A DNA stretch of 58,849 nt from Catajapyx aquilonaris (taxonomy: Eukaryota), in the NCBI GenBank assembly GCA_000934665.2, contig JYFJ02002345.1:1-58849 (forward strand), given 5' to 3'. Both the position numbers and the translations under genes were made by a program. A model generated the notes under the pieces. The model searched no databases. It was not told the origin of the DNA and saw only the letters and a list, made by a program, of their open reading frames with translations. Shown in pieces: positions 10,726 through 44,881 of the stretch. Each line of letters opens with the position of its first letter. The stretch's first letter is position 1.

Positions 10726-12186
10726 ATGCCTCCGAAGTCGTCCATCATTGTAGGTGCTTTTCACTGACTGGTTTTCAATCATGATTAAGCTTCTGTTAAT
10801 ATTCTGTGCAGTATTACAAAGAGATCATGTGTTTATTTATAGGACAAAAGCTACGTGGAACTAAGAAGCAGCATCTACAATAAAGAGGAATCAGATGGTG
10901 ATGATGTAAGTTACGGAGAAGTTAATGCCCATGATTGTGTGTAAAAACTTCACTAATATGCTTCTTATATTCCTCTCCAAAGACGGACGAATCAGGGAGC
11001 CTGAATGATGCCGAATCATTCCAACAACAGCAAAAACGCTCAAAAAACACATTGTCACCTAATTCAGCTAATAATGCGTCCTTGAACAAATCTTCAGTCA
11101 GACAACCAGACAAACGCAAGGGAAAAGGAAAACCCAAAGTTTATGAACCGCAAGAGACATCAAACAACAAAATGTCTAAGAGTAGTGGCAAATATGAATT
11201 GCGCGGAGGCAATTCAGAAGAACGACTGTTCAGGCTGAAGGAGCAGTTGAATATTCTGGGAAATCAGATGAAGCAGATCAGCGTGGAAATGGCAGATAAG
11301 GTTATGGTAAGTGGCTATACAGGGTGAGTCAGAACTAGAGGTGGTCAAGAAATCAAATACATCTTGACATACGTATAGTTCTGTTATGATTGTTGATTCT
11401 CTTTTAACTTACTGATACTTGTTGGAGTGCTTTTCCTGCTCATGTTTTTTAATGATAGAAGGAGGTCAGCTCCTGGAAGAAACAACTGAGAGAAGATCAC
11501 GAGAAGACACTTGCGAGCATGAGCTTTGAGCCAAGAAATGAGATCCAAAACTTGAACAAAGAAATTGACAACAAGATAGACAATTTGACCAAAATTCATG
11601 TTACATTATATCAGAGATCTAAGGCCGACGACAAGGAACTTGTTAAAACCTCATTTAATATCTGGCGAGACAACATGCTGAAAATAAAGGACAAGGAGCA
11701 CAAGGAACAGGTAAGATGCCTTTTGATTGTATCTGTACGTTCATAATACTAGTGTAAAAAATCTTCTGTTCTTGTTCACAGAGCTTCACTAATATGGCCA
11801 CGAATTTCTACAACACCAAGCTCAAGCGAAGGGCTTTTCAAGCGCTGAAAGAGAATGCTAAAAACAAATGGTCAGCACGGGTCCGTAAAAGCTCCATAGA
11901 CCAAGCGTACGCAATGGGAAAAGTTTCAGTAGAGGAATCAAAGAAAAAATATAAGCAGGTGTGATATAATTTTTATTGTGTTGTAGCCACATTGCTCACG
12001 CCTTTTCATTATTATAATTTTTAGCTGAAAGACAGCAGCGTGGCTAAAATCAAGGCTAAGAAAACAGAAGATAAAGAACATGTTGAATCAGCCGCTCTTG
12101 CCGAACTAAGGGAACAATCAAAGTACCTGATGGAACAAATGTCAATCTTGGCCCACAAAAGGCAGTGTCCGTGTCTAAAGGAATAA
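10726..12186 (+). CDS. POC5: POC5-like centriolar coiled-coil protein (~333 aa)
   Basis: Six phase-0 exons: 10726-10749, 10843-10905, 10983-11306, 11459-11710, 11782-11958 and 12025-12186. Trp-spaced Sfi1-like segments SFNIWR...ATNFYNTKLKRRAF...KNKWSARVRKS align by eye with the POC5 centrin-binding region (FFHWR...ADQYYQRTLLKKVW...KQWKDVVERA). Confidence 0.6.
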
Positions 12187-12451: not shown

Positions 12452-15400
12452 TTAAGAAGAAGAACAACGAAACATATCCAACAGACTTATACCAGCAAGT
12501 TTTTTTCTAAGTGCAAAGTATATCAACAGCATTCCCAAGAGGACACAAATCCAAGCTAATTCACTTGCAAACCCAATTAAAACAGCCCTGCTACTGATTC
12601 CCCACCCCCTACTAACCATGCTCCTCATGGCTTCACTGGACAATGTCACAGGAGCCAGGTAGCACATCCACCTGAGCCAAGCCCTGTGTACTGCTTCCAG
12701 TGGCCACACCAACCCTCCCAGCAATTGGAGAGAGAAAGCGATGGCCACTACAAGCATGACGACTCCATCAATGCCAGGCAATATGACTCCTATCAGTGTG
12801 CCAGCACAAATGGCACACAGTGAATTCAAGATGCAGAGAAGAATTATCCACAATAATGAGCTAGCCACGGGGACTTGCAATAGGATGTAAATCATCAGCA
12901 ACACTACGAACGTGGGGTACAAGGAGAAGATCAGGAGTGATACGATGTGAGAAACTATGAATTCCCAGTGTCTGACACCTGCAAGAATATTCAGCAATCA
13001 CGTGTACAATAATCCAGGAAAAAAAGAGGACATACCTGAGACAATTGTTCTCTCCATCATTCCATCGAATTTTTCCCATTGAAATTTGACTGCAGAAAAG
13101 CCAAAAGAAATCGCGAATGTAACTCTGGAATTTTGTAATGTGAGAATTATATTATACACATTCATAATAACAACTTGACACAAAGTACAAATGACTTACT
13201 GTATCAGATATCCAGGAGCAATAAATTCCAAAAAGTTAGGCTTATTGCTGCCATATATTGGTTCTGATGCTATTGGTGCGGATGCCAATGGCGTAGTGCT
13301 TAGGTTGCAAGATTGTAACATGTGGCGTGCAAAATGAAGAAATCTTTTTAACATCATATGTTGAATAGTCAGGGAAGTTTGCAAGCCTGGAAATAAAATT
13401 GCGTATGAATTCATTAATTCCTCGTGGTATTTTCCAGAATAAGGTCGAAAACATACCGTTAGTATTCTTATACACAAAAACTGATACAGCACTACTTTAT
13501 TACTTCAAACGATGCTCTTACTTGCCATATCCATTCTGAGAGTTACACTTGACGTGACCTTATTTTTGTTCTTGCTAATGAATCGTCGAAAGAGATTTCT
13601 GGAGTAATCCTTGGGGATAATGAGAACTCCGAATGCGTCACCCTTTTCAACAGACATCACGGCAGCGTCCTCGTCTGGATACGGAACCTGAATATACGGT
13701 ATAAAGTTATTTCTTGAATATCTAAAAAATTCTTTCGCAGTATTATTTGCCGAAGAAAGATATGGAAAGAATACCTACAAGTGTGACCATTTCATGATCA
13801 AGTTTTCCCATGTAGGCGCAGCTTAAATTGAAGAAAGAGCAACCCTTGGGTGACTGGCACAGTGGATCCGCAGGCCATTCATGATTCACTACACCCAAAT
13901 TAACCTTCTTGGGATCACCTCCAAAGGTAAATGCCAATATGAGCATAACGAAAAGAGGCAAGTGAGAGAATGTTAATGATATCCTGGAATTGAAGAAATC
14001 ATTAATATTAGGCTACATGTAGCTTCAAAGAAAAGCACACAGCTGTGCCAGAAGACCTTACATGATGTTTCGCCAAAACCAAATAAAATTTTTCTTCATG
14101 AGTGCGCATATGTTATTTGCAGAGGAAGAATTACGACTCATTTCAGCCTCCCCCAACTTGTCATATGTCTCCTTACATCTTTTGACACCAACTGAGGAAT
14201 TTTCTTCATCCATTATGCAAAGAGACAGAAACATGTCGTCTAGCTTGCTGACTGAGTTGTGTTCACCGAAGGTGACCGATTCTGGACTGTCTTCGAAAAT
14301 CAATCGGCCATTTCTCATAAATCCTATTGTGTCGGCCTGCTTCGTCTCTTCCACATAATGAGTCGAAAGAATAATGGTCACATCTTCCAGAGCTAACTTG
14401 CGTAAAGTCTGCCAAATCCTGACAAATGTGCAAAACATAATTATTTTATTTTTACTGATACTGTGAGTTTACAATGTCAAAGCTTATTCACATTACCTCT
14501 GACGAAGTAATGGATCCATTCCAACTGTTGGTTCATCCAGAACCAGTAGTTTGGGATTGTGCAGCATTGCTATCGTCAGTGATACCCGTTTTTTCTGACC
14601 ACCACTAACAACAAAGATATAAAATACCTAATTTAATGTGGCTACAACAAAAACTTGACTGAAGCCATGAATCACTCTTAAGAAACCTTTTCACATAAAA
14701 ATTACATTTATAACCTGCGCAGTATTATTGTTAAGAAACTTATTAATGGCCAAAACTGACCTTGTGAGCCTCATTCACGCAAATGAAAAAAAAAACTTAC
14801 TTTTTGTTGTGTAAATGTTGTTTGAGTTTGTAAATCTCCCTGTACATAGGCTCCAAAAATCATACTTGCCTTAGGGTATGAATGACTCTATCCTGTGGTG
14901 GGATCTGCAAGAGTTTCATGAGATATGCTAGTCTCTGCTTGATTTCCTCATTTGTCATTCTGTGGATGTGGCCAAAGAAGTAAGTTGCTTCTTGTATTGT
15001 CATTGTAAGTGGAAGAGCTTCATTTTGCGGCATGTATCCTATTAATGAGCCTTGAACGCTGCTGTCAGGGGTTCGACCCAGAACTTTGACTTCTCCTGAG
15101 TCCACTGATATGTATCCTACGATGCAAGACAACACGGTTGTTTTTCCACAGCCGGATGATCCTATCAGGGCATATCTGCATAAATCAAAAGGTTATTGGC
15201 ATATTAACTTACAAGGTTATGTGAAATAGAAGTATAGTAAACAATAACAACAACGAAAAAATAAAAATATTAATATTAATAATGCGGGTCAATGATCAAT
15301 ACCGTACACTATTATTTTTAGATAACGTTATCATAAGTAAAATATTATGTGCCAATAATATTCTACTTACATTGTTCCCTTCTTGACTTGCATTTCAAAG

Positions 15401-16541: not shown

Positions 16542-16888
16542 TATTATTATTTTTTTATTTTTTTTATTTTTTACGGTACCCCGTGATAGGGCCATAGGCC
16601 CTTATAGGGGGCTGGAATACCACCATTTTTCCTTCAATTTTCAGATTTTTTTCTTCTAACTCCGGTGCAAGGATGAAAGGACATGAGGTAAGGATAGAGG
16701 GATTTTTGGGGAGGGAACATAGGTGCAAGTGCAATGTCGGTAAAGGGGTCATGTGCTGTCCCCCAGGAGGTTAGGTTGCCAGACACCTCCTTGGTGCAGG
16801 TCAGAGACCCTCCTGACGCAGGTGAAAGGAAAGTTTCCCAGGCGGGGATCGAACCTGGGGCCTTTCACTCAGCAAGCCGAGACATTAC
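16542..16888 (-). mobile_element. tRNA-derived SINE (5'-truncated head), same family as the copy at 34564
   Basis: The minus-strand 5' half (TCTCGGCTTGCTGAGTGAAAGGCCCCAGGTTCGATCCCC...AACCTCCTGGGGGAC) is near-identical to 34590-34716. It ends in CCCCCT-hairpin-CACGGGGT and an A-rich tail. Confidence 0.85.
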
Positions 16889-17271
16889 GGTCGGGGGTCA
16901 TGATTGTCATCATCGCCTCTTTGTTGCTATACATTTGAGTCTTGAAGCAGAGCAAAAATAAAGGCTTTTTTATGCACCAAAGTGTACAGTCAGAGTTGAG
17001 ATGTTTCACTGCCAACTTTTCATTTAATATGTAGCCAAGATCTACTACTTTTAATGTCGAAAGTGGTCTGCAATGGTGAAAAGCATTTGAGAGCCAAAAT
17101 TCCCACAAATTCATCTGGAAAAAGTACGCTATATCAAATGGCAGGTACAGTACATCACCTTGACAACAAACTCGCTTCGAAGGTTGGAGATGTAAACAAA
17201 TAGACGCATATTCCAGGAATCTTTTGTTGGAGTCGGAAGTGTTTCTTTTACGTGCATTTACGACTTCAAAT

Positions 17272-19830
17272 ATGGAGGATAATATGGCAAGTATTATATT
17301 GACTGAAATATTTTTCTAAACCTTGTTGAGCATGTTTATGATTGTACCTATATTTCACCAACAGAAAAAGGTTCCTCCCAAAAAACCTGTAAAGGTAAGA
17401 CTTGGCAGAAAAATGTAGGCAAGTTGCAACATTGCAATAAATTATCTCATTTAATTACAGCACCGCAGGACCATTAAGCCATGGAAAAAATTGGTCGCGG
17501 TTACACCAGGGACAGAATGGTATAAAATCAAACCACTTTTACTTCCGCGAAGCGTAGGAGGAATGCATGACATCAAGTGCATGCTTGAATTTGCAGATGA
17601 ACTTCTTAAAAGTAAGCATTGACTGTGACTATAAATTGACATGCATTGACATGCAGGTGGTCATGCAATAGATGCGCCTTAAGGGGATAATAACTACTGA
17701 ATAAACAATTCCATATTGTTGTACTTTATATATACTGTGCATTTAAAAAAATAACCATTTTCTCCACACCAACTTCCAGGACAGAGAGCAAAGCAGCTAT
17801 ATCTGCGTGCACTGAAGGCCATGAAAAAGGGGGAAACAATAGAACTGATTGATAAAGTTAGGAGAGATGTGGCAATGAGTAAGGGATTTGAAACAGAGGT
17901 TACGAAACAACGAATCAAGTAAGATGTTCCCTACAGCACACGAGTGTCTCCACGTAAAATTCTTCGCTGTTATTACAATGACTTGTCTTCGCTTGTCTTA
18001 CCCTGACATTCACATATAATTGTATGGTACTCTTACATATTTGGTCAATTTAGGATTAGGCCTATTTATTATACGTAGTAGACCACTATCTCAAAATAAT
18101 GTGAAATGAACACTTTATTTCAGATACGGCCGAAAGTACCGCATTGATGTATTTTTAGAGCAACTTAAGGCCATTAAAATATTACTTACTTGCTTACTCA
18201 ACATGAAAACTGAGCATCTTTATACACTGGTCAGTTCGATACAAAGCAATGGCAAATGTGATGCAATAATATCAAAAATTTTATTGCAGGATCTTCTTCA
18301 TCCAGCTACAATCAAATATCTAAGAAAGCCCTTTCCCAGAAGACTGCTACTAGAAATGAACTCTCTACGGAGCAATCCGTAAGTGAAAAACTATAGCAAT
18401 CTTACGCAAATCCAAGAAATAATATAAGACTCAAATCCTGTGTTTGTCGAGTAAAGTAAGTAGTGATAATATTTCACTACTAACGTAATGCTTATTTAAA
18501 TGATTTGACAATACCCAGACGACTAATCATACTCCATTATTATAAGTGTCAGAATACGTAAAGTACCGTATGTATTGTATGATTGACAAAATATTGGACA
18601 AAATATTGTAACTGGTTCATCCACAGAATTTCCTTGGGAACTGCTGAAAAACCTATCACACTTCAAGACCTAATACAATCAGGATCTGGTAACTGGGAAT
18701 CCCGCATGTATGTGCAAGCATTTTACATTAAAGTGTATGCACACCAGTAATTAATTACTGATAAGCATGTTCATAATTCAGCAAACAGTACGATCCTGGG
18801 TATAAAATACCTCCTGTGATCTCCACGCCAAGAAACAAATTGGCGCCTCTCAAGTTCCTAACTCCCAGGAAGTTCCAAGAAAGCTGTTTCCCTCAAGAAA
18901 CGCCTCCTTGGTTGAGGCCCCCGAAGAACTTTGAAGAACGTCACATTAGTAGGCCTACGCTATTAGCAGCAGACATTGTGAAGCAGATGAGAGACGACTA
19001 CAACGATATGAATGAGCGATTGCGAGACGAGTACCTCCGCAACGTGGAGAAACAGACTAAAGAAATGGCTATGACCTTCAAGCACAAGTACTCCGGTGAC
19101 TTACTTTTGTTCTCATATCCTTCGCCAGCATAATTAGTTTCGGCTACTTTATCCTGGTCTTGAAGCAACCTTTCGCACAGGCCCCACGGTGAGGAGGTGT
19201 GTGAAGGGTTGCTTCAAGACCAGGATAAAGTGGCCGGAACTAATTGAACCCGATTGTACAGTACGTTGCTTGCTGACCGATATTTGTACATATGTAGCGT
19301 ACATCAAACACTACGACAGCGGAGCAGCTCTGGAGCATATGAGAACTAGAGCTAGGCTTGCCTTACACGAACACGCCGCAATTACTCCCAGCTTTTGGTA
19401 AGTTGTTAAAAAATATAGATTCATTAGAGAATAAATTGTAGACTTAAACATCTTTGCACAGGTATGTCGAGTTGCTGAGAAGAGCAGTACACTTGGAATG
19501 TCTTGGAGTAACTGAAATAAGAACCACAATGGATGACCTAATGTTATTGGGCGAGGTTGATGAATACCTCTTCACTAATGGCTTGCAAAAATTATGCTTA
19601 ATCACACTCTCACTTCCTATTACGGATTTAGCCACGGAGGCGTGGCAGGAAGCCGTTGTGGTATATCAAAATTTTTATTACATTCATTGGAAATGATTTT
19701 TAAGGTATTATCTTCTATAGACTTAAAATATTCTGATTGTCACTTGCAGTTCTTGATCAAGAATTTATTTCACGCTCCTGATAAGACTTTCCAGTATTGG
19801 ATGAAGTTCAAGAAATTTTACTGCGGCTAG
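17272..19830 (+). CDS. Uncharacterised tandem family, paralog 1 (11 exons, ~434 aa)
   Basis: Exons 17272-17286 (GC donor), 17365-17394, 17461-17611, 17780-17918, 18124-18229, 18290-18378, 18627-18707, 18782-19095, 19298-19397, 19462-19660 and 19750-19830. The ORF is open throughout and homologous to paralogs 2-4. Confidence 0.8.
19132..19245 (+). repeat. 48-bp-arm inverted repeat (hairpin or small MITE) in intron 8 of paralog 1
   Basis: Arms 19132-19179 and 19198-19245 pair fully, with 4 G-U pairs on the + strand and an 18-nt loop. Confidence 0.9.
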
Positions 19831-20739
19831 AGTTAATTACTCTCATTGTCACTCTCGCTTCTGGGATGAGGTGTGTCTCCGAGAAGGCTTCGGAGGATTT
19901 TAACTTGGCCACTTGCACCAACGTGAGACAGGTTTTTAAAAATAAACATTTATTTTTTTAACGTGCCACCTCTTATATTTTGGCATATTTTTAATTGCAT
20001 TGCCACAATGCCGCGGAAACAACAATACTTCAGTTTTCAAATGGTTTTTTAGTCGCAACAATTGCATTTTTCGGTAATGATACAGAAGCCTCCGATATTT
20101 CTCTCTTTTATTCTATATGATAAACTAGTAATTCATGAGTTGATAGGATTAGAATATTAGATGGAACGCAAGAGTTGTATGCTTTTCTTTCTTCAGGTGA
20201 ACTATATGTTAGGAAGAGTGTTCAGAGCGCAATATGGTGATAAGTCATCGTTCTGCACAGCAAGAACATCAACCAGAAGAATCTGAAGGCTGCAAGAGCC
20301 TAATAATATCTGTACATAAAAGATATTGTTTATAAATAATTATATAACAAAATATAACTTATTTGTACACAGTATATGATAAAAACTACTCGCATACATA
20401 TTGAATGGGACCACGTTAAACGTGAAAAATAAGAAATCGTTACACATCACCGTCCCCAGTATGTATATACAGTACTGTACATCCATCTATAAATATATAT
20501 ACAGCATAATACAGTATATAATAAAGTCAAGAAATTCACATGAATTTTTGAATAATATTATTCTGATACGTTGTGAAGCCCAGCAGTCATATTCCTTGTA
20601 TTGTGTGTATTTATGACAACGCATAGCATGACAAAAAAAATATTAATGCTGCTCAACCTATAGTTGCTATGGAAGTGTAAATAGTTTATATTAGAGATCA
20701 TTCTTGGAGGGAGAGGACGTGTACTATCTCTGCAGCATA

Positions 20740-23700
20740 ATGCCGAAGAAAGCGGTACGAATAACAATGGGTATCCGTTTCATTTTTATGTTAGGACAAG
20801 TTCTTGAGATCTTTCATTCTAGCAGCTGCAGCAAGTGGAATCTGCAGATCCTGCTGTGATCTTAGAACAGGTAAGCTATGCACTAGTATATCACTTCAGT
20901 GTACAGGATAACAATAATGTGACTTTAGTTTACAACACTATAACTGACAGTGCAGCATATGATTCAAACTATATTATGTCACTAGCTGTTGAGTACCTTT
21001 AGTAAATTAAATGTGAGTTATGTCGAGCTATGCAACCATTGTTTGTGAATAATTGTAATCGCGACTTTTTACTTACATTACTGTCAAAATTTAATCTTCA
21101 AATAATGTACAGTGCGTTTCAATAGTAACTAACCATGCGTAAAGCTGCTTTCTTGAGTCTTGCAAATGCAATGTCATTTAGTTATTATGCTGCATTATAT
21201 GAACAGATTTACGGAAAAATATATCCCGGGGAAAGAATAGTATTGGCACCACCTTCTTCAGCCGACTTTGAGTTCAAAGCCGTAGGAAAGCCCAGTATCA
21301 TCGGTGGATCAGAAGAATTATTCAAAATTCTTAGAACACCAATACTAAACCTTCAAAGTTTGTACAATGAATATATTCGTACTGCAAGTAACGGAACAAT
21401 GGCACAATGATGGACAATTTTTTTTTCCAGGAGAATTAACTTCGAAGCGTGTCTTGGAGTCACAGTTAGTCACAGGCAAGAAGCGCGATGTAATAGAAGA
21501 AAAAATGCATGCTGTGGAGGAAAAATTCAAGGCGGCAGAAGGGCAGCAAGAGTCTGGCCCTATCAGGAAACTAGATCTCGAAATCAACTGGAAAGAGTAA
21601 AAAAAAATTGCTCACAAATTTTGAGAGACCCAAGATCAAAGTGTAAACTCTGGCTGTGCTTCTTTTTCCAGGACAGTCCGGTGCAGACTAGCTCAAGACT
21701 TGGAGAAAAAAATGCACATCATTTACGATATCATTACCAGCTTGATGAAAATCACCAAGGAGGATTTAAATTCAAATGTAAAGTTCATTCACAACTTTTT
21801 ATGTTGCTATATTGCATACTAGGTGCCTTTGGCTGTGTTAGGAGCAATGGAAATATCCACAATTTCATAAGCTAATAAAAAATGTGAAAAATCAAAATGG
21901 CAAAACATTTGAAATACTTGTGAATCTAAACACGAATTTAACGTTTTTAATGATGTGGGAATGTCCTATGATGAGCATCGTAAATGATAAGTGCCAATAT
22001 CCACTCTAATTAAGCAAAAGGAGGCAAAATGAGCGGTGTTGTTGTGAGTAAAACTTCATACACTATATACGTGTATAATACATGTAATATCATTGTGCAG
22101 TACTACACGGCCGTACCAATAGAGAATGAAGATTTCATTAATTTTTCCTCTTGTTTGTACCAATATCTCGCTTTTTCAGGTAACACTAACGATCTCTACT
22201 GTCAAAGCTATTCGACGTGATCCACCCAAACCCGAAGAAAGTTGGGACAAATGCAGGTATTGTTACATTATGTTCGTTTAGAATATCAATGTTACTGTTA
22301 CATTTATGTTTCTCAAATTGTTTCATGCAAAATTATATTTAAAGAAATCTCACAACTACCGGTATCAATATTATGACAGTAAGCCTAATACAGTCTATTA
22401 TTTGTTTCACTTGCTTCCAGCAAGATTCAGAGTTGTGAACCACAATTATTGAAGAAGAAATTTGAAATTGGACCGTACGTATACACCATACAAGTTTTAA
22501 GCTATTTTCAATATAATCCACTTTAATCCAAAGTGTATTTCAGACTCTTACACGTGGTGACACCCGGCGTACGTCCAATGATGCATAGAAGAGCCATGAA
22601 GGTGATGGCGAAAGGCGTTACAGCCTCTACATTTGCAAGAATCACATTTCCTCTTGAACCACTCCCTCCGTGGAAAGAAGTAGCCCCAGAAGCTGTTTCA
22701 CAATATTATGTGAAAAATAAAACATTCACAGTAGAGCTGGCAACTGACATTGTACAGTCCATGAGGCATTCCCATTCGAACATGTCCGCAAGAGTCAAGA
22801 GAGATTGCGATAGTCTATTAAAATCTCAAACTCGTGACATGGAAATAACCTTCCCGCAAAAAATGTACGGTAAGAAATATCTCCTCAAATCACATAATAA
22901 TACTGAGATATGTTCCTTTTGCACTATGATACTAAACAATTCATTTTTCGATAACTAAAAGGACCCGCGCACTTGGAACACATTGTATATTATTTAAATA
23001 AATAATATACAGCGCATAAAAGTGTATGCCATGTGGTTAATATTTATCGCACGTGAACCATTGCAGGAGTGGATTACCATCATTATGATGCAGTCAGGGC
23101 GCTCTCAGAGATGAGAAAAAGGGGCAAGATTGCCGCCAAGACTTATGGAATGGAACAGGGAAGGAAATTTTACCCCAGTAAATGGTAGTGCCACTCAGCA
23201 TTATTTTTGTATCATTAATATATTCTCTCACGATTCCTCAATAATTTGTCATGGGAGTGAATGTAATGTAATGCTTAATTAAATGGATGCATAGGTTTTG
23301 GTAGAACAATAATTAGATCATGTGTAAAACATGTGGATATTAACTTTTGATATACAGTATTCAACCTCCCTGTGTAGTCAGTAACATATTAGAGTAGTAA
23401 TAGTGATACGCATGGAAATTTACATATTATCTATTTATTACAAGGTACATGGACCTGATAAAAGAGAGCGTCATCTTGAAAGCTGGGGAACTTCCAGAGA
23501 TCAAGGCTGCTTTGCAGAAGTTGATGAAAATGGCGGAAATGGACGAATGGTCTATTAAACAAGGATTCTCCAAGTTGTGTCTCCTGACTCTGTCTTTGCC
23601 ACTCGTAGAACTTGCCTCGCCTCTGTGGCAGAAAACCCTAATGGTAAAGACGTAGTGTCAAATAAGGCCATTTGTTTCAAATGTGATATGTGCGACTACT

Positions 23701-23877
23701 AAATCTCCCTCTTTCTTCCTCACCCCCCTTTTGTCTTATGAACAGTTCATGGTGGAAAGGTACTTCTGCGCCCCTGGAAGTATATTCCTAGAGTGGTTGA
23801 AATACCGGAACGTCACGTATTTGGTCAGTCAGGGCAAAGAACAGGTGTGGTGGCCTGACTTGAACAGCAACAAATAA
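20740..23877 (+). CDS. Uncharacterised tandem family, paralog 2 (11 exons)
   Basis: MPKKA|QLQQVES..LEQ|IYGKIYPGERIVLAPP...; ITFPLEPLPPW; WYMDLIKE..EMDEWSIKQGFSKLCLLTLSLPLVELASPLWQ|FMVERYFCAPGSIFLEWLKYR. Exon 3 is 21207-21357, exon 5 is 21672-21777 and exon 10 is 23445-23643. Confidence 0.8.
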
Positions 23878-24276
23878 AATGCTCTATATACCCGTGTATA
23901 ATGTCATTATTTGTAGGGCCGAGTCCTGTCCTAGAACATGACCTGTCCTAGAAATGCAGCTTCTCCTTGAATAATAAGGACTATCCTTCGAGTTATTTAA
24001 ACTACCCGCTCCAAAGACCCTTGATGCGTGTGTTGACTGTCGCAAAATAGGAAGTTATGGGTTATTAGCTTTCAATAATTTTGAAGCTAATATTGTTCAG
24101 TATACTGCATCATATGACATACTGACAAATAATACAGTAAATAATAAAAGCTGATTCAGATGCTAACAACAACAATAAATGCAAGCCATGAACAATACTA
24201 ATTGCTATGGAAATGCATCTGTAGTTGAATTTTTTTTTCTTCAAGGCAGACGCCTAAAAGATATATTGCGGCGAAT

Positions 24277-27200
24277 ATGTCAAGAGAAACGGTCAGTACA
24301 CATAAGTTGCCTTGTAGAATTATTTTAACTTGAAGAAAATCCTCACACTTTATTGCTTCATTTTTAGAAGGAAGATATCACCCGGGCATCTGAAAAATTG
24401 AAATCCACATTAGAACAGGTAATACTTTTTCCCACTTTGCGTTGCTATATGTTACCTAATTAGGCACAGCAACCTGCTAATGATTTTTGTTCACACTTTG
24501 TTCGCCCTCAAGTTACGTTAGCTACCTTATACGTTACGCTGACTGGCAATGCACATGATTCTAATTTACCCAGTATAAGTATAATTACCGAACATGCTTA
24601 TTCTTGCTATTCAGAGTCGTTGTTATTATCAACAATGAGTAAAGGTTTCAGTAACTTGTACTGGATATATGTGATCATGCATTATAATATAATGACATAT
24701 ATGATTGGTTACTGCACCAGATTTTCGGGAAGATAAACCCCGGAGACGTACTTGTGTTGGCACCTCCTAACTCGGAACATTTTGTTGTGGTGGATCCCCC
24801 TTTCCCCAGACAAGTTGCAGGATCAGAGGAAATAACCAAAATCATCGGAGCCTCAGTCGATCTTCTCAAACGTAAGAGGGTCTTACATGTTGTAAATTCT
24901 GAGTAACTGCAAGGTCTGTTTCAGAACAAAGAGGCGGGCAAGATTACTTGGAAAATCTGAGAAAGCAGAGATTAGCTAAGGATGTGGTAGACGCAGAGAC
25001 AGCACTCAGGCCCCGACGTCCGGCACACAAAATAGATATGATCCATAGTGGAGTTAATTTGCTGTTGATAGAGTATGGGCATCAAAGGACTTGACTGTGG
25101 GAAAAACCGAAATATTTTTTTAAAACGTTTCATCTTTGCAGGAAGCAACACCAGGAGACAATCGAAGAGTTTGAAACGTATCTTCGGATTATCATAATGA
25201 TTCTCACCAGTCTGCTAAACATGGACAACGAAATTTTAGACACATCTGTATAGTTAATCCTTCTTAACACTTGTAATATTATTATATTAAGCTATAGCCA
25301 GATTCAGTAATACGTCATGACAGTGGAGAATAAGACTTATGATGTTATGAATATTAACAGTTTAACACAATAATTCACTACTGAGGATTCTGTGAAGTTA
25401 TGTAGAGTCTGCAGTTTAGAGTCCACCTTTTTGTCTTAGAAGTGATTAAAATTAGTAACAATATTTTATTTAGTTACATTTAGATTTCCTTACCATTGAT
25501 CTCGAAGACCGAGGTTATTTAATAATCCTAATTGGGCATTTCACAGGTCACCCTTCATCCAGATGTTGTCAAAAAACTTCGACGAATATCGCTAGGCAAA
25601 CTTACGCCAGAAGAACAAGAGACCCAGCTAATGTACGAAAAAGTACTGAAAAAACTCAGGTGTGGTATTTTACTTAAAGTTATTAACGTCCTAGGGGGAA
25701 AAACATTGAGGTTGTATATAGGCCTATATTGATCAATATTCAGTAATGGTCATCACATTTTAATAGCAGAAACTTGCCAATATAATTTTTTCTATCATTG
25801 CCGTAGCAACCAAAAATTTTCACACGTGATAAAACATTATTAATGATAATTATGGTACAACTGTTATATAATCGCGTTATAATCATGCTTACCACACCTT
25901 CACAATGATGTAGGAATGGATCTATCTTCATAATTTGACACAGTGTGCCATTAAAATGGTCATTATTAGCATATATCAGATGGATCATTAGGCCTGTATA
26001 ATCGCGCCATTGGAAGGTCATAATGTAATCAAATGGACAAAATACTTATTTGCATAAGGTAATTATTATACATGAGTAAATTGATGGGATGTGGGACTAT
26101 TTCTGAAGCTGTATCATTTCTGTCTCGGTAATTTAGAAAATACCACTGAACCAATAATTTCACGAAAATATAATGTTATAATAAAAGTACTTAATGCTAA
26201 CTTGCAAGTGCATGAAAATATGAAGATGGTAATTTTATTCATGTGTTGTGAAGATCAGGGAAGTGTGCCGTCAAATTCGTCAAATAAAAAGTAAAGCTTT
26301 GACAGATTAGAAATTTTAAAAATCAGTCGTTACGGTAATAATAACAGAAAATCATATTGTCATGATTAAATACAGCGTCTTATAATTATTATTAAATGTC
26401 GCGATATAGGTATTAACATCATAATATGCGAGTGTGGATATTTGCCTTTTCTCTTGACATTTTTAAGTAGCACCTCCATTGCATTCAAAGGTGGTTGCCT
26501 ACAATCAGGTTATAAGAGTGATATTTCTTTGCTGGAGTCAACCTTGAAAATGGATTTTTCCGAAATTACAACGGTTGGAAAACTGATTGGCCCATGATAA
26601 TTACAAAATCCCCCAATCTGCACTAGTATAGTGCCAAAATTAATAATGCCATATAATTATTTATTTTTTCTGCAGCGATGATGTGATTCCCGTATCAGAA
26701 CTTCGGACTACGAGTATGTCTGTAACAGGACCGTAAGTATTCGTGCACATAGAGCACTATCGAATCTCTTTCGTTCAATTTTAATTCCTTCTATAGGATT
26801 CTACGTGTGATCTCAAAGGACTGCAAGCCAATGAACCCGATAAAAGCTGCCAAGTTGATGGCATCCGGAATATCGAAGTCAGAGTTTAACAGAATCACCT
26901 TTCCTATGGAGAAACATCCCCCATGGAGAATCCAAGATGAATCCAATACTACTGTTGTGACAACAGACGAGGCGAGAATCGAAATAGCAACGGATGTTTT
27001 GCAGTCCATTAGGAACGCCTACGTGAATATGTCAGAGAGGCTCAAGAGAGAACATGACCGACTGGTGGTCAATCAATCTCGTACTTTGGACAAGGCGTTC
27101 AGGCGCAAGTTCTACGGTAATAAAAATAATTATTAATCATGAAAGTGCCCAAAAATGGGATTGGAAATGAAGAAAATTACCAAATTGTCATTATCTAGTT

Positions 27201-28134
27201 GAAATTCATTCGGATATCAATATAATTATTGCCTCAAGTATGTTGTGTTTCGATAACAGTTACATTTTGTCATGCTGTGTGACTAATTTTATGGACATCA
27301 TTCCAGGATTAAACTGTAGACATGTCTCTGCAAATCAGGCTCTTGAGGACATGAGAAAAGTTGCAAGAACTGGAAAACTCAATGGGAAATATTTCGACAC
27401 ATTTGAAGAGGAAAAGAAATACTACCCCTGCCCATGGTAATAAATATCACTGTTCGACAAGGGTAAATTTTCTCAGGTTATGATGTGTGTTTTCATAAGT
27501 ATTTTCGCCGCTGATTCCAAATTGTGCTGTCAGGCACGGTTTTTGAGATATATCGTTTCAAAATTTGGAACGGTTTACTAGGGGTCTTTCCGGGCCTAAA
27601 TGTTGCTAGACAGTCTCGGATCTCTGGTGGTGAAAATACTCAACTACTCCTTAATGCTGCTTATAAAGTTTCAGTCATATTGCGAAATACCAGAATATCT
27701 CAAACAGTGTGCCTGACAGTGGGACACACACATATTCCACTCACTAAATCTGCTCCTTTTTTGAATTGCAAGGTACTTGGATCTCATCACTGAGTGCGTG
27801 AAATTGTGTGCATTTGATGACAAAAGAGTCAAGACAGCTTTCGAAGATATGCTGGTATTATGCGAATTGGATGAATTTACTATTCCTAAGGGAGTCCCAA
27901 AGCTGTGTCTTCTGGCCATGTCTCTCCCAACAGAAGAACTTGCCACAAAAATATGGCAGAGAAGCCTGGCGGTAAATATCAAAGCAAATCACTATAAGCA
28001 TTTATGTAACTCACTATCTCTCACATTGACAGTTCATAGTGGAAAGAATGTTCTTCGCACCTGAAAGTACCATCCGAGAATGGTTAAAATACCGAGGACT
28101 GTGTTATATGATGGATCGAGAAATCAAAAAATAG
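24277..28134 (+). CDS. Uncharacterised tandem family, paralog 3 (11 exons)
   Basis: MSRET|KEDI..LEQ|IFGKINPGDVLVLAPP...; ITFPMEKHPPW; WYLDLITE..ELDEFTIPKGVPKLCLLAMSLPTEELATKIWQ|FIVERMFFAPESTIREWLKYRGL. Exon 3 is 24721-24871, exon 5 is 25142-25247 and exon 10 is 27773-27971. Confidence 0.8.
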
Positions 28135-28825
28135 CGATCTATTTAATTTCTACATTTGCCTGAAAGCACTGTGTATATGCTTCAAACACGTCAATAAATG
28201 CACTATTCTGATCTATGAGTTCTTTAAAAATTACTACATAATAATTATGAAAGTTTTTTTTTGTTTGCAGCCTTTCAGATCGACTCGTGCACTCCAAGTG
28301 CACTCCATCACATCCGTTATTATACATACTGTACAGAAGCCTACACAAATACAATTTTCCTTGCTATCATAATAATAAAGTATTTAGGTTATAACTCTTA
28401 CTCAGTTATATGTCAATTTCATGTCCATTTTATAATAGTCTAGGACTGGTTTTTACGCTGGTGTGTCGTGGATGTTAGAGGAAAGAATCCTCATTATGAT
28501 TGTTGGAAAATAGGCGAATAGTGTTTTGTTTAGATCTCCAGTTTTGTCATGTGCCAATAGAGTAGTCATCCACTGGCATTGAGCATTATTGTGCAACAGC
28601 ATTTGCTGCCACTCTGACACTGAGATACATTAAATATTTTGGCTGAAATAGTGTAATATGCACTTGCTATTCATTTATGCGATTAGTTTATACCTGTAGT
28701 AAACTCTGAAAGTGAGCACTCATTGTCGTCCACTGTTCCCATGGTTATGTAAAATGCCGGTGCAATCATAACATTTCCTGGTTGCTTCACCGTACTACAC
28801 TACCTGCATTAAAACATCAGCAGCC

Positions 28826-31297
28826 ATGGCAAGTACAAAGGGTTGTCTCAATTTTCTGCATCGTAATTATTTCAAACCCCAATATCTTTCGTTGCATATG
28901 CTGAGAATAGGAAAATAGAAGAAAATACCGGTACCAAATCACACCACTGACGGCATCTATGAAACAGGTAAATTCTGATGAAATATGTTTCCGTTAAACC
29001 ACTCAATACCTGAAATATGCTTTCAGCGTTATGGGAACTTAAAAACTGGGGAAACACTGGTTGTGGCACCTCCAGGGACGGATAGGTTTCAGATCTTGCC
29101 TCTCACCTTGCCCAAAAACGTAGGAGGATGGGATACTATCTCCGAATTTATGACCCTGTCCGAGAAACTAGTAAAAAGTAATTATGTCACTGGTTATATA
29201 TTTCACACTAGTTTAAAACTGATATTAACTTATCTCCCTTGATTGTGAAGGTCAGATATGTGGACATTCCTACCTGGATACATTAGCCAAATTGGTTCCG
29301 CCCAAGCCAAAAAATTTTGAGGAAATCGTAAGAGCAAAAGATTTCAAATATTCACTCCGTCCTGATCCTCTACTTGCTAATTATTTTAGCTGCAGGCATG
29401 AGTAAGTATAGGCCAAAAAGCAACTTTTATTAACAGAAAAAGCATGTGTGTCATAGGCTACACACTTTCTCTAAATAATCTAATTTACAAATTGAACTGA
29501 ATATTGTCCCATGCAATGTATCAAAAATATTTTCTCTATGTAGATACTTACGCCAGGAATTAATTAGTGAACTTCTGGTACGACTTAAGGCGATAGATAA
29601 TCTTATAAACAGCTTGCTGAATATGAAAATCGAATTGCTGAAAACACTGGTAAGTTTAGAGTATAACCGTAGGTAAATTCAGTATTGCAGAATGGTTATG
29701 TTATTACTAGCTTAATGCCTTTGCACTTCAAGGAGCCTCTTCGACCTGTTTTAGTCCGAATGTTGCGAAAAAGGAAACGTAGAGCAACCGTAAGAGTAAC
29801 AACCAATGACCCGTTTGGACTCTGGGAGAAATATCAGTAAGCTGTTGTAAATATATGTACAAGTTATTGTATTTGCATTTTGAATTTTTAACAAGTTGGA
29901 GCAATAATAGTATGAACATCTGCAAACATATTTCATTTGGCAGTCAACTTTTGTGATTAACTTTCTTAACTTATTGTTGTCGACGTTGAGCCAAGTTTGC
30001 ATGACTGTAATACCATTTTTAATTTATGATTTCAGGAGGACAGGAAAGAAGTCAATAAGGCTACCTGACCTTCATGGATTTTGCTTTGAAGGACCGTAAG
30101 TGTGATATTATACTATGTTTGGAAAAGTTTACTTTGGACAATATATTCTTGCCTTGTACATTATTATAAGTGTACATATGCACGAGCTCACAGATATTCG
30201 GTCATTCCTAAAACATTTTTCAAGTGTACCACTAACAAACTTCACAACATATACGTGGATGTACGACTCCCTTTCCTAATTATTTTGTCAACCTCAGAGA
30301 ATTACGGATTGCGTCACACAACGTGAAACCTATGCCTGAAGCCCAAGCTGAAAAGATGCTGGCTAAACATGTGTCGAGTGAGACTTTCAAAGCCATAACT
30401 TTCCCTATTGAGGATAATCCACCCTGGTTCCCTGTGCCCAAAAAGCAAGAGCCCATCATTGGCGGGGTGAAAATAGTGTCGGCAATAGAAGTTGCACAGA
30501 GCATCCGAGACGAGTTCCTGAATATGAATGTGAGGCTGTGCAGGATGTATGCTCGTCTTACCAGCAAAGATGCAGGAGATATGGATGTTACTTACAAGAG
30601 GAAAGTGAAAGGTTTTTTTTTGTCATCCCCATTATTATCATTATCATTATTATCATCATTATTATCATCATTATTATTATCATTATTATTGCAGCATTCA
30701 AAATTGTTGGGATCTTGGGCCCAGAAAAGGCTCTCATGAAAATGAGACAATATGCTGCCTACAACAGATCGGAGAGGGTAGTAAATCCTAGCAAATGGTA
30801 AGGTGATTTAAAATTTTCTGTTGCATATGAAATGACACTTACAATGCACACTGTGGCTTATTAGTTTATTACATATGGAAAATACAACCTAGACAAATAC
30901 TTGTTATTATTTATTAATTATTATTTCCACTAGGTATCTCGAGCTGTTTCGAGAGGCTGTAGACCTGAATGCTCTTACAAACAATGAGGTAAGGGAAACA
31001 CTGGATGAACTGATGAAGGTTTCTGAAGTGGATGAACTAACCATACCCAACTGTAAGGAAAAGTTGTGCCTCCTTACCCTGTCTCTACCTGTCACTGAGC
31101 TCGCTAATCAGTCATGGCAGAGAGCGATTCAGGTAATTAAGAAATTAGTTAAGAGTTCATTTTCTCTGGGATTAATCGGAGTTAATTATTTGCTTCAGTT
31201 CCTGCTGGACAAATTGATGTATGCTCCCAAGGGCATCTTACAGAAGTGGTTGAAGTACAGAGGTCTTTCTAATCCTTTGGATCAGATTTTTACCTAA
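28826..31297 (+). CDS. Uncharacterised tandem family, paralog 4 (11 exons)
   Basis: M|ENRRKYR..KQ|RYGNLKTGETLVVAPP...; ITFPIEDNPPW; WYLELFRE..EVDELTIPNCKEKLCLLTLSLPVTELANQSWQ|FLLDKLMYAPKGILQKWLKYRGL. Exon 3 is 29027-29177, exon 5 is 29544-29649 and exon 10 is 30934-31132. The first exon is tentative (GC donor). Confidence 0.78.
30631..30690. repeat. (ATT/ATC)n microsatellite filling intron 8 of paralog 4
   Basis: Trinucleotide run lying between donor 30612 and acceptor 30694. Confidence 0.9.
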
Positions 31298-32483
31298 ATT
31301 GAAAAATATTGTAAGACAAAAATGAAACAAAAAGTGACATACTAAGAAACAAAATAATAAATTTATGTGCATATATTTTCGTCCTTGCTTCTTAAGAGTT
31401 GCTTGAAGAGTTCGTGTACTATACATCATTATTTTAACTGGTGTAGAGTACTTAATGTCTATTCGAAACTGCTGCAAAACCTGAATCATAATTTTCAAAA
31501 TCATAGCACTATTGTGATCACCTCTATGCTTTAAAAGTGGCAAGAGAGGGATTGCTGCCATTTTGCATTGTTGGAATGCAGGTTTATTAATTACATTTTG
31601 TTATTGTGTGGTTTTGTTGCAATAGTTTCACTTACGTGTGACCAATATCGTTTCATACCTTTTGGTGTTGGTAACTTCGTCAGCCTGGGAGTTTTTCATA
31701 ATGAGGTTCGATTATACAATATAATGCATGGTAAGCAACTATAGGAGACTTGATCATTGGTACAGGAATATTTCCTCATTCAATTCCAAATAAATAAAAT
31801 AAAAGTTATTACAGACTCACAACTTAAGTAGGCTATTATATCACATGATTACCAATAACTTTACAAAATTTAAGGAAAAACCCCTCTAAGATGACCTTGC
31901 CATATCCACCATAACAAGTCATGTGACCTTCAGTACACGTACTTGGAGCCGCAGGATTCTCACTGTGATGCCTTATTAAATGCATTGAGCATGGTAAGAT
32001 GCTACTGTACACATTTCTACATGTAAAAAGTTACCTGGGAATTAAACCAAGGCCTTGAATGTTTTCTTGCCCCCGGCTCCTACGTCACTTGCTCAGATCA
32101 TGAAGATAGTCATTGCAGGTTGTAAAAGGTTTTTTCACGCCCGTACCCATTCTTGCTGAGAACCAGCGGCACTCTGGAGGTAAGACGTCTCTGTTTAAGT
32201 TTTTGCTAAGTAATGGGCTAATTACTTGATGTGAGGCTCTCATTGCGCAATAATGACCTGTTAAATTCTTATGCCAGAGTATATGTACAGGAACTAGGAT
32301 AGTTCAGGCACTTAGAGGATCCTATGATGAAAGAGACGATTAAGAAAACAATTGGCATAAATGATATGGTGACAACAATGCAATACATGAGTGAAAGGAC
32401 AAACCACTCTGTAGTCCGGCTTGTGGCCAATATAGGACGTCAGACATAATGTGTTGAATGTATTTTTTTTTAACAGTGCAGCC

Positions 32484-34188
32484 ATGTCTGAATTAGAAGA
32501 CTTTTCCCAGCCGTCCTCTCAAAATACAATCACGGTTCGGAATGCATTTAAGACCTACGGACGTGGTAAAAATGAGAAACCGATTCTACGCAACTTTGGA
32601 ATGACTGTGAAACGAGGAACAATGTAAGTGCGAAAGGTGCAAACGCAATTCTGAGCATAAACACATTATGCAACATTAATCAGACATTTCATTTGGAGGC
32701 AGCTACACTATTGCAGGTGGAATTGGTTGCGGAAAGACGACAATAATCTCCTGCATTCTGGGTCAAACACTGTTGAACTCTGGTGAAATTAGAATATTTG
32801 GTCGGGATGCACGTTTGTTTGGAAAGGGCATCCCTAAATCAGCTGTGGGATACATGCCACAAGAAAATGGACTCTGTCAGTCCCTATCCATATATGAAAC
32901 TATGCAATATTTTGCCAGCATCCATGGACTTACCAAAAGAGAAGCTGGGCTCAAAATTGTATATTTAATAAAATTGCTCAGACTTCCATGTAAGGAGAGA
33001 AGACTGTGGTCTCTAAGGTAAGTAATTATTTTCCTTTACTGTTCTCATTTTTATAATAATTGGACTAGAAAAATATATCCTCACGATTGTATTTTTATGA
33101 TCTATTTACAGTGGTAGTCAATTGAAGATACTTTCATTAGCAGTTGCAATGCTACACGAACCATTACTGCTCATATTGGACGAGCCTACAGTTGGTGTTT
33201 GCCCAACTATGAAATTCACGTAAGCTGAAATATTATTTTCACCAGGAAAAATGTTGACGCAGTTGCTGTATTTAACCCCCCAAAAAACCATACATCAATA
33301 GACAATAGTATAGGCCTACATGTGCAAATATTATTTTAGATTTACTATCGATAACGCACTTCAGCCTTTGAGTGCTTCAACATTTTTCAAACTACAGAAA
33401 ACACATCCTGCATAAGTAAACAGAATATATTAATAACAGCCACTGTCTCCTAGCATTTGGTCTCATTTGCAAAAATTATCACAAGAGGATAACGTCACAA
33501 TCCTATTGACTACCAGCAACGTTGAAGAAGGTCGAAATTCTGACACAGTGGGAATGATATCGGAGCAGTTCTTGATCGCAGAAGGAAATCCACACGCTTT
33601 ACTGGAGAAGCATAAGGCTCGAACTCTGGAGGACATATTTTTGAATCTCTGCGAAGATGAGGCCCCTGCTGCAGTTCATGAGCCTATTCTGGAGCCTTGC
33701 TATCGTTCTAAAATCACAGAGAAGCAATATAGACGATCGAGGCCTACTACCCGTATTATGGCTGCCACTAAGAAATTGGTCCATCAGCTGTGGAGTTATG
33801 GATGGTACCTTCTGATTTTGCTTACTCAAGAGATATTGGAAATTAAACGTTCGTTTGCATTGCTTTCAGGAAAACTATATTGCTGTTAAACACAGGGGCA
33901 TTACTCATGCTGATTGCGTGCTTCGTCTGGGGTCTGAACCCTCATGGTGTGAATGTGGCACTAGTCAATAATGAATGGCCTCAGAAGCCTTTATGTCAGT
34001 ATGATGATTGTCACTTTTGCAACCTGAGTTGCAGTTTCATACAGAAGATGGATCATGGCATGATCACATTGGTAAGAATCAGTGGCAGCTCATGGTCAAA
34101 AAAATTGGGACACTTCATAACTGATAGCCGGCCTGCAATACTATGGGGTGGTCCCCAATAATAATAATGACAATAACATCATCAATAA

Positions 34189-34273
<85 letters not shown>

Positions 34274-40300: not shown

Positions 40301-41375
40301 AGTTCACGGTATAGGATCAGAAATTGCTCATCATCCTGCACCAGCGGCGCAACCTCCTCTGCCTCAGGCCACGGTGATGTCTTAAAATATTCCTCTGTCA
40401 GTTGTGGGTACCTGCCAACAAAAGAATTCCACAGCTGACATAAAATGATGCACATCATGGCTTTCCTTTTCCCTGAGACTCTTCAACATTATGAGGTATG
40501 CACATCAGCACATGTATCACAAAAATACAATGAATAAATTAATCCATAATTTCATGCAATTGCAAGTATTGGTGATTCCTGATATGACATGAATGCTAAA
40601 ATCAAGTCACACTCACGTATTCTCATAGAGGTTCTGTATGTCGAAAAGCGATCCTTCATTGATCATGTCCCGGAAGAAGATGATGAACTTCCTGACGACC
40701 TCTGGCATCTGGAACTGCTGGTATTGCCTCTCATATTCCAGGTCCAGGCGGGGATCACCTGTGTGCAGGTCGTACTCATGGCCGCCGCCGCCGCCACCAC
40801 CACCGTAAGAGTATGAATCATACTGCATAGAGAAAGCAGGCATGATAAGACTATCCATGTGCCACGACAGTATTACAAAACTTACATGTAAGAGAAAAAA
40901 TAAGACACTGCCAAAAACCTCACGAAGACTGACTTGGACTTTTGCAGTAATCATAGCAAAAACTCCTGGTTTTCCAAAGATGCATACATGAATGCTACAT
41001 GCCAAGGTATAAATTAATGGTGTCATAAAAATGGTCAACTAGGCATTAAGATGATGTAATTAATAATGCCCTTTCATTAGATCAGTCTTAATTATGCCCC
41101 CAAAAAACTGCAAATTTCTTAAATTTCCAAGGTCAGGTACATATTGCAATTTTCATCAATTCATCAGTGCACAAAACCATAAAATGAGTCATTCGGAAAT
41201 CATTGCAGAATAGTTGCAGCAGACTATTTCATCAAACTTACAGCACGCACAATTTTTACATCATGTTCTGATATGCTACTGTAGCTCGCGCTTCAAGTTA
41301 GATGTGTGCCAGGATTTATTGTCATGTCACTGAATGAAATAACTTTTTGTGGAATTCATGTGAAGAAATCTTAAC

Positions 41376-41440
<65 letters not shown>

Positions 41441-44423: not shown

Positions 44424-44797
<374 letters not shown>

Positions 44798-44881
44798 TCC
44801 ATTTGAATAGAATATTTCTAAAATTGGATTTGCCACATTTAGCCTTGTCTTGTGACCTAAAAATTAATATCTTAATTACAG

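Follow-up and report, generated by a model that had tools for sequence, protein, structure and literature searches.

Four deeply diverged tandem paralogs with a conserved exon–intron structure in Catajapyx aquilonaris: a probable lineage-restricted orphan family

A 58,849-nt stretch of the genome of Catajapyx aquilonaris (contig JYFJ02002345.1, positions 1 to 58,849, forward strand; hereafter the window) contains four similar multi-exon units, and the question is what these units are and whether their products belong to any described protein family. The units are four paralogs on the same strand, genes A–D, that occupy 17.3–31.3 kb of the window. They were modelled by splice-aware DP in which three exons of fixed length were forced, and gene A was curated against its paralogs. 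The resulting models are as follows.

17332..19830, + strand: gene A, 440 codons, 10 coding exons in the model, provisional 5′ end; exons (splice-aware DP plus curation) 17332-17394, 17461-17611, 17780-17918, 18124-18229, 18290-18378, 18627-18707, 18782-19095, 19298-19397, 19462-19660, 19750-19830
20161..23877, + strand: gene B, 469 codons, 11 coding exons, exon 1 weak, 5′ end provisional; exons (splice-aware DP) 20161-20196, 20826-20870, 21207-21357, 21431-21596, 21672-21777, 22180-22256, 22421-22474, 22544-22869, 23067-23184, 23445-23643, 23746-23877
24277..28134, + strand: gene C, 463 codons, 11 coding exons, 5′ end provisional; exons (splice-aware DP) 24277-24291, 24368-24418, 24721-24871, 24925-25072, 25142-25247, 25547-25659, 26676-26732, 26797-27116, 27307-27436, 27773-27971, 28033-28134
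28959..31297, + strand: gene D, 431 codons, 10 coding exons in the model, provisional 5′ end; exons (splice-aware DP) 28959-28967, 29027-29177, 29251-29401, 29544-29649, 29733-29836, 30036-30095, 30298-30611, 30695-30797, 30934-31132, 31199-31297

A preliminary description of the locus had assigned 11 exons to every gene; this number is predicted for B and C, but 10 exons are predicted for A and D. The end that it gave, 31297, is the stop of gene D. A start of gene A at 17272 was rejected, as it has no in-frame join to the next exon, and the model starts at 17332. A mini first exon ending ATGGCAA/GT in genes A and D, likewise lacking an in-frame join downstream, was set aside as coding sequence. 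The intron of gene D at 31133-31198 is open in frame, so that 30935-31294 reads as a single ORF. The exon-2 donor of gene B shares a 13/13-nt match with gene C. Scans for Rfam families and tRNAs found none in the window.

The paralogy of the units is evident from translated comparisons. Matches in tblastx between the four sub-regions are collinear and on the plus strand in all six pairs, with E-values of 3e-18 (A–B), 2e-19 (A–C), 6e-39 (A–D), 5e-57 (B–C), 5e-31 (B–D) and 7e-35 (C–D). Three exons have exactly the same length in all four copies, each between AG and GT.

151-nt exon, + strand, AG...GT bounds: A 17461-17611, B 21207-21357, C 24721-24871, D 29027-29177
106-nt exon, + strand, AG...GT bounds: A 18124-18229, B 21672-21777, C 25142-25247, D 29544-29649
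199-nt exon, + strand, AG...GT bounds: A 19462-19660, B 23445-23643, C 27773-27971, D 30934-31132

Intron phases are identical across the predicted models at nine positions from the 151-nt exon to the stop, and the exons of variable length keep their length class modulo 3. The GT-AG boundaries of all 38 predicted introns are imposed by the DP construction; a CAG acceptor is present in 29 of these introns and a GTAAG donor in 14. The GC content is 43.4% in exons and 32.5% in introns.

Units that are closely spaced on one strand might also be four repeated modules of one long gene, and gene B does possess an in-phase candidate donor at 23844 (CAG/gtgtgg) ahead of its stop. Each unit, however, has a stop shortly past the conserved C-terminal motif, and no in-phase donor follows that motif in A or C; an AATAAA lies 59–266 nt past each stop, though not above background density. 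A single gene is thus a very improbable reading, and the units are treated below as four separate genes.

The copies have diverged deeply. Amino-acid identity between the four proteins is as low as had been described (25.9–36.7%), and self-blastn found no similarity between the copies at the DNA level; their introns are unalignable, with only two matches of 20–22 nt. Synonymous sites are saturated (pS 0.67–0.82), pN is lower than pS in all six pairs (0.42–0.51), and dN/dS, where dS is computable, is 0.22–0.37. Identity by codon position follows the order 2 > 1 > 3 in 6/6 pairs. The saturated pS, the lower pN, the order of codon positions and the unalignable introns together indicate old duplicates under purifying selection, as had been proposed; retention of paralogs by such selection is also what characterises an orphan family. 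In an unrooted tree the genes group as ((A,D),(B,C)), with a bootstrap of 100 and both alternatives rejected (AU p = 0.008); the branches of this tree of four paralogs measure 0.5–1.4 substitutions per site.

These data also bear on the possibility that the units are not functional genes but pseudogenes, left by decay of duplicates, or a repeat derived from a transposon. Directly upstream of gene A there is a 336-nt dispersed repeat, and the start codons are provisional, which would suit such an origin. Against it, the predicted conserved exons are all open in the four copies despite saturated synonymous sites, so the frames are intact as first noted, and the codon-position signature is present in every pair. 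Pfam searches with exon queries found no transposon domain, the units have no surrounding terminal repeats, and all 62 tblastn HSPs in the window fall within the array. This reading is already largely refuted and retains hardly any probability.

The predicted proteins are about 50 kDa in size, basic and hydrophilic, with a pI of 8.4–9.7 and a GRAVY of −0.31 to −0.41. Hydropathy over 19 residues reaches at most 1.07–1.51, and no membrane-like segment is present in the predicted proteins. Their description as basic and non-membrane is therefore borne out by pI and hydropathy; that they are non-secreted is provisional, as are the predicted N-termini on which it depends. No catalytic or metal-binding motif is recognisable in the four predicted proteins. 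The first conserved block is N-terminal and is encoded by the 151-nt exon. Further blocks comprise an amphipathic helix that contains SLLNM, a basic patch, FPxExxPPW with a helix of about 40 residues after it, and a C-terminal helical module with ExDE, KLCLLxLSLP and a closing W-L/M-K-Y/F-R/K motif. The motifs quoted in the preliminary description stand as approximate patterns with several exceptions: copy A has neither PG(E/D) nor APP, copy B has SLMKI where SL(L/M)NM is expected, copy D has AIEV in place of A.D(I/V), and the last motif has a 7-residue spacer before AP, versus 6 as quoted.

The AF2 model of exon 8 has its main helix at residues 62–103 (pLDDT about 90), together with two short ones and a disordered FPxExxPPW stretch; it is one long helix rather than a domain. 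The C-terminal module is modelled as all-helical, with a mean pLDDT of only 51.9. On these models, the proteins are predicted to be largely α-helical, and their folded fragments helical.

Relatives were sought with single exons, that is, contiguous stretches of the window yielding pieces of 50–108 residues, and with profiles built from the four paralogs. None of the 11 exon-bearing fragments reaches a curated Pfam gathering cut-off. The best E-value, 0.012, belongs to the MCM_C winged helix, and the MTS methyltransferase was matched at 0.19; neither match is recurrent, and with the alignments of exons 3, 8 and 10 no Pfam family is matched by more than one of the four copies at E ≤ 10. The absence of a named domain from the preliminary description is thereby upheld. 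Profile searches of PDB sequences gave best E-values of 0.18, 0.39 and 0.28. An exhaustive HMMER search with the exon-8 profile found no match at E ≤ 0.001 among 1,835,955,588 (1.84 billion) representative proteins, and word-indexed protein searches (exon 8 of D and the exon-10 profile, each against longer proteins) gave none. As an indicator of library coverage, a 648-residue receptor-like ORF of the same window had one relative (26% identity) in the word-indexed search.

In the ESM Atlas, the C-terminal piece matched just bacterial ‘hypothetical’ clusters and exon 8 had no usable match; the recognition scores were 2062 (C-terminal piece) and 1716, where 2300 is reached by 91 of 100 known families. 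Pattern matches were confirmed neither in metagenome contigs (17 and 291 with the two profiles) nor in viral contigs (164), and no relative was accepted among the 8 pattern matches in prokaryote genome contigs. A 13-residue match in a MAG (L001) was pattern-driven and was judged to be chance. Within the portions of the literature that were accessible, three motif strings matched only irrelevant signal-peptide and viral-protein papers.

When each paralog was left out of the profile in turn, it scored 48–87 bits with exon 8 and 75–89 bits with exon 10. About 41 bits are required; the profile search could therefore detect relatives that differ as much as the paralogs do among themselves, which is the range that this check covers. 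Within the libraries searched, no relative was found at that sensitivity, as expected of an orphan family.

The copies might nevertheless be fast-evolving members of an already named family (a Pfam DUF, for instance, or a protein conserved in metazoans), with hidden homology. A distant relationship that depends on full-length sequence would escape queries of single exons and four-sequence profiles, relatives remoter than the paralogs lie beyond the power check, and there are faint matches to DEK, Abf2, MCM_C and MTS. None of the faint matches, however, recurs in a second paralog (exons 3, 8 and 10), the 1.84 billion representatives contain no match and both Atlas scores are below 2300. Hidden membership of a named family is rather unlikely, if still to be reckoned with. 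The reading that we favour, and that is probably correct, is that of four separate tandem paralogs encoding basic, hydrophilic, largely helical proteins of about 50 kDa that form a lineage-restricted orphan family.

The regions upstream of the genes contain short elements shared by pairs of copies.

17284..17293, + strand: ATGGCAAGTA upstream of gene A, 177 nt before the 151-nt exon
28826..28835, + strand: ATGGCAAGTA upstream of gene D, 201 nt before the 151-nt exon
20664..20674, + strand: TTGCTATGGAA upstream of gene B, 149 nt from exon 2
24202..24212, + strand: TTGCTATGGAA upstream of gene C, 153 nt from exon 2

The 10-mer ATGGCAAGTA occurs on the + strand only upstream of A and D (0.11 expected on both strands); it is a possible promoter or 5′-UTR element and is offered as a lead. 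The 11-mer TTGCTATGGAA, which forms part of a blastn match (15/17) shared by B and C, occurs in the whole window only upstream of these two genes (0.03 expected).

These regions are relevant to the earlier suggestion that the proteins are components of sperm, axoneme or centriole, which would be compatible with an orphan family. The proteins are basic and helical, and an X-box-like half-site is present upstream of all four genes, 60–250 nt before the predicted start. The sole perfect X-box match in the window, 20607-20620, is upstream of gene B, and at 28820-28833, overlapping ATGGCAAGTA of gene D, the consensus is met with two mismatches. A ciliary gene set would be marked by an X-box enriched near the start and by expression in ciliated tissue or testis. 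The scan of the window with an X-box consensus, however, showed no enrichment (149 matches versus 150.65 expected). The neighbour described as ‘POC5-like’ matches no Pfam family at E ≤ 0.001, nor is it adjacent to the array, being separated from it by an ABC transporter gene; the genes flanking the array are ABC-2-type half-transporters. Gene adjacency in animals is poorly informative. Beyond the weak X-box-like half-sites, the suggestion finds no support, and it is quite unlikely; the pairwise-conserved X-box-like upstream elements would still allow for a function in sperm or ciliated cells.

With regard to the favoured orphan family, one ancestral gene, probably of about 11 exons, gave rise to the four copies by old tandem duplications, and purifying selection has kept all four functional. 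The lack of enzymatic features and the composition of the proteins tentatively suggest non-enzymatic intracellular adaptors or scaffolds. Such proteins would bind partners via conserved linear motifs and helical modules, and their basic patches would fit a polyanionic partner, e.g., nucleic acid or tubulin tails. It is conceivable, with some reserve, that the family is genuinely new and ancient, confined to an under-sampled animal lineage, with its own motifs (FPxExxPPW; ExDE...KLCLLxLSLP...WQ; the C-terminal W-L/M-K-Y/F-R/K) and probably its own fold. As all four copies have persisted over a very long period, each would then have its own function.

If truly unrelated to anything described, the array would represent a new protein family, possibly with a new fold, in an animal lineage that is poorly sampled. 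Non-model invertebrates commonly have orphan families, and the importance of the array is at present modest. It is a clean case of extreme sequence divergence with an almost frozen gene structure; since exon lengths and intron phases are conserved and synonymous sites saturated, it is useful for studying the diversification of tandem paralogs. Automatic annotation without RNA data probably misses or fragments such genes, which makes curated models valuable for annotating the genome.

The nearest sequence match to the exon-10 module is the C-terminal domain of DEK (PDB 1q1v). In the exon-10 profile, 29 consecutive residues align with the helix-rich DEK residues 13–41, and both modules belong to basic proteins; the invariant KLCLLxLSLP...W-Q of the array proteins, however, falls outside the aligned stretch. 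The match to 1q1v amounts to 12.0 bits (i-Evalue 1.6) and Pfam DEK_C is found in none of the four copies, so DEK_C was rejected; the C-terminal AF2 model is all-helical but its pLDDT of 51.9 is too low for a fold search.

Likeness to the small domain of class I SAM-methyltransferases (MTS) is confined to copy C, in which a faint match (E 0.19) spans the block D-V-L-V-L-A-P-P. Class I SAM-methyltransferases carry a SAM-binding glycine-rich motif upstream of the (N/D)PP(Y/F)-type motif IV, which we take this block of copy C to resemble. The conserved block of the array reads A-P-P, in contrast to N/D-P-P, and is found no more than about 25 residues from the N-terminus; there is no conserved coding sequence upstream and hence no place for a SAM-binding motif. 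The exon alone matches MTS in none of the four copies, and with the A-P-P block N-terminal this candidate was rejected. An HMG-box, which would show a three-helix, L-shaped fold and match its profile significantly, was rejected as well: the best match is Abf2 (E 0.18, 15.3 bits), and the exon-8 model consists of two short helices and a 42-residue helix.

The closest parallel in kind is with orphan tandem families of animals, which likewise comprise head-to-tail paralogs with a conserved exon–intron structure, under purifying selection and lacking homologues outside their lineage. Tandem arrays are commonly formed by secreted or receptor families, unlike the basic, putatively intracellular proteins of this array. 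Compared with other orphan tandem families, the copies described here are unusually old, with 26–37% identity, and their gene structure is nearly exactly preserved.

The window DNA is animal nuclear in appearance, with short GT-AG introns and a GC content of 35-45 %. The array of interest consists of four tandem, same-strand units, designated A to D. Peptide fragments quoted in the preliminary description are present in plus-strand stop-to-stop ORFs at 17.2-31.3 kb, and all six pairs of sub-regions give collinear plus-strand tblastx matches, with E-values from 3e-18 (A-B) to 5e-57 (B-C). To fix exon lengths, AG and GT sites were listed within the open frame of each conserved block; the three exon lengths reported earlier (151, 106 and 199 nt) proved exact in every copy.

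Exons of the same exact length in 4/4 copies
151-nt exon, + strand: A 17461-17611, B 21207-21357, C 24721-24871, D 29027-29177
106-nt exon, + strand: A 18124-18229, B 21672-21777, C 25142-25247, D 29544-29649
199-nt exon, + strand: A 19462-19660, B 23445-23643, C 27773-27971, D 30934-31132

Full models were obtained with a splice-aware dynamic programme that employed donor and acceptor weight matrices and a codon score trained on 986 codons from the conserved blocks; the three fixed-length exons were forced, and copy A was curated against its paralogs.

Predicted gene models, with provisional 5' ends
17332..19830, + strand: gene A, 440 codons in 10 coding exons
20161..23877, + strand: gene B, 469 codons in 11 coding exons
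24277..28134, + strand: gene C, 463 codons in 11 coding exons
28959..31297, + strand: gene D, 431 codons in 10 coding exons

Between the 151-nt exon and the stop codon, nine intron positions are common to the four models, with phases 0, 1, 2, 0, 2, 2, 1, 2 and 0, and the exons that vary in length keep their length class modulo 3. The 38 predicted introns have CAG acceptors in 29 cases and GTAAG donors in 14. The start previously placed at 17272 has no in-frame join to the next exon; no significant conserved coding block was found in the regions upstream of A-D. B and C have a short conserved patch in intron 2 (21101-21160 and 24560-24619; tblastx E 5.8e-4). The patch includes a stop codon in B, and it may have a regulatory role or represent an exon, either alternative or relic. 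In gene A, a palindromic stretch within intron 8 (19138-19240) translates alike on both strands.

The simplest reading of the array is four separate genes. Each unit has its own stop codon, and no in-phase donor was found after the last conserved motif in A or C. AATAAA occurs 59-266 nt past each stop, no more often than the background density of 0.92 per 500 nt would give. A tblastn search of the whole window with the four proteins gave 62 HSPs, none of them outside 17000-31400 and none on the minus strand.

The copies are strongly diverged. Protein identity is 25.9-36.7 %, self-blastn of the window detected no DNA similarity between them, and their introns have only two matches in common, of 20-22 nt. 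Nei-Gojobori counts put pS at a saturated 0.67-0.82 and pN at 0.42-0.51; dN/dS is 0.22-0.37 for those pairs where dS is computable. Of the codon positions, the second is the most and the third the least identical in 6/6 pairs (0.58, 0.42 and 0.35 in an example pair vs a random expectation of 0.26), and GC content is 43.4 % in exons vs 32.5 % in introns of the models. Open frames alone prove little, since exon boundaries were partly picked to keep the frames open; the conserved exon lengths, common phases and codon-position signature are independent of boundary choice. The saturated pS, the lower pN and the codon-position signature in all six pairs thus bear out the earlier proposal of old duplicates under purifying selection. 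A maximum-likelihood tree of 383 ungapped columns has the topology ((A,D),(B,C)) with a bootstrap of 100 and branches of 0.5-1.4 substitutions per site; both other topologies were rejected (AU p = 0.008).

The upstream regions contain two short elements, both on the plus strand and with no other plus-strand site in the window.

17284-17293 and 28826-28835, + strand: ATGGCAAGTA, upstream of A and D
20664-20674 and 24202-24212, + strand: TTGCTATGGAA, upstream of B and C

The pairing of these elements agrees with the tree. Both resemble half of the RFX X-box consensus, and the single perfect X-box match in the window is located upstream of B. X-box matches are not enriched window-wide (149 vs 150.65 expected), and these putative X-box-like elements are a lead rather than evidence.

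The array is flanked on both sides by ABC-2-type half-transporter genes, a third copy of which is located beyond; the three are paralogous to one another.

4291-7757, - strand: ABC-2-type half-transporter gene with ABC_tran and ABC2_membrane exons, beyond the array flanks
12452-15192, - strand: ABC-2-type half-transporter gene with ABC_tran and ABC2_membrane exons, flanking the array
32680-36922, + strand: ABC-2-type half-transporter gene with ABC_tran and ABC2_membrane exons, flanking the array
38008-41038, - strand: eIF3 subunit L-like gene (Paf67, E 8.8e-56)
54332-54763, + strand: Med31 gene (E 1.6e-26)
798-2459, - strand: DEAD-box helicase gene

The last three are housekeeping neighbours. 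The ORFs at 10935-11746 (+), which the preliminary description labelled 'POC5-like', matched no Pfam family at E <= 0.001, and its guess of a sperm, axoneme or centriole role for the array is unsupported. No tRNA or Rfam matches were found in the window. A THAP domain (E 1.6e-13) is encoded by a 360-residue ORF (44876-45958, +), which adjoins an uninterrupted 719-residue ORF (46919-49078, -) that matches no Pfam family; the two may be a transposon-derived pair. A dispersed repeat of 336 nt, probably a SINE- or MITE-like element, is present in two oppositely oriented copies with 78.6 % identity, one just upstream of gene A (16559-16888, +) and one within the downstream ABC gene region (34587-34900, -). 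Long trinucleotide microsatellites with one common unit are located at 34157-34277, 41366-41436, 44672-44798 and about 30620-30690, one of them within intron 8 of gene D. Two inverted-repeat pairs, 43591-43734 / 43847-43992 (92 % identity) and 35323-35395 / 35472-35544 (90 %), are possibly MITE-like hairpins.

The predicted proteins of A-D have masses of 50-54 kDa, a pI of 8.4-9.7 and GRAVY values of -0.31 to -0.41; their maximum 19-residue hydropathy is 1.07-1.51 and they therefore have no membrane-like segment. In our reading of the alignment, the sixth exon encodes a conserved basic patch, the sequence of which in D resembles a nuclear localisation signal. No P-loop, Cys/His cluster or catalytic signature is present in the alignment. 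Folding of the exon-8 piece, with an alignment of the four copies as input, gave a model with a mean pLDDT of 70.3 and two short helices; the FPxExxPPW stretch is of low confidence, and the helix at residues 62-103 has a pLDDT of about 90. The model of the C-terminal module (D 30935-31294) is all-helical, but its mean pLDDT is 51.9 and the query contains 22 intron-encoded residues.

External searches employed single-exon pieces. None of 11 exon-bearing fragments matched Pfam at the cut-off and, for the alignments of exons 3, 8 and 10, no Pfam family was matched by more than one of the four copies, even at E <= 10. The best PDB sequence profiles had E-values of 0.18 (Abf2), 0.39 (DEK C-terminal domain, 12 bits across 29 residues) and 0.28. 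Exhaustive HMMER with the exon-8 profile found 0 of 1,835,955,588 proteins at E <= 0.001; word-indexed protein searches with exon 8 and the exon-10 profile returned no relatives, the ESM Atlas gave no usable lead (recognition scores 2062 and 1716), and scans of metagenome, viral and prokaryote contigs yielded no confirmed relative. In a power test of the exon-8 search, a profile of three copies was scored against the fourth: the left-out copy reached 48-87 bits with exon 8 and 75-89 bits with exon 10, in every case above the roughly 41 bits needed at that library size. That library thus holds nothing as close to the family as its paralogs are to each other. An intronless 648-residue ORF at 56533-58476 (+) is ionotropic glutamate receptor-like (Lig_chan E 2.9e-4, below the cut-off) and has a single relative with 26 % identity in the word-indexed search; library coverage of the Catajapyx lineage may therefore be poor. 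With single exons as queries, the family is indeed an unrecognised one.

At the gene level, the findings are well supported: A-D are four old paralogs under purifying selection, belonging to a family with no match in the single-exon searches. The family would be restricted to its lineage and encode soluble, basic, helical proteins; that these are non-enzymatic binding proteins is a tentative proposal, which we consider somewhat less probable than its converse. Among poorly sampled animals, tandem families of this orphan type are common.
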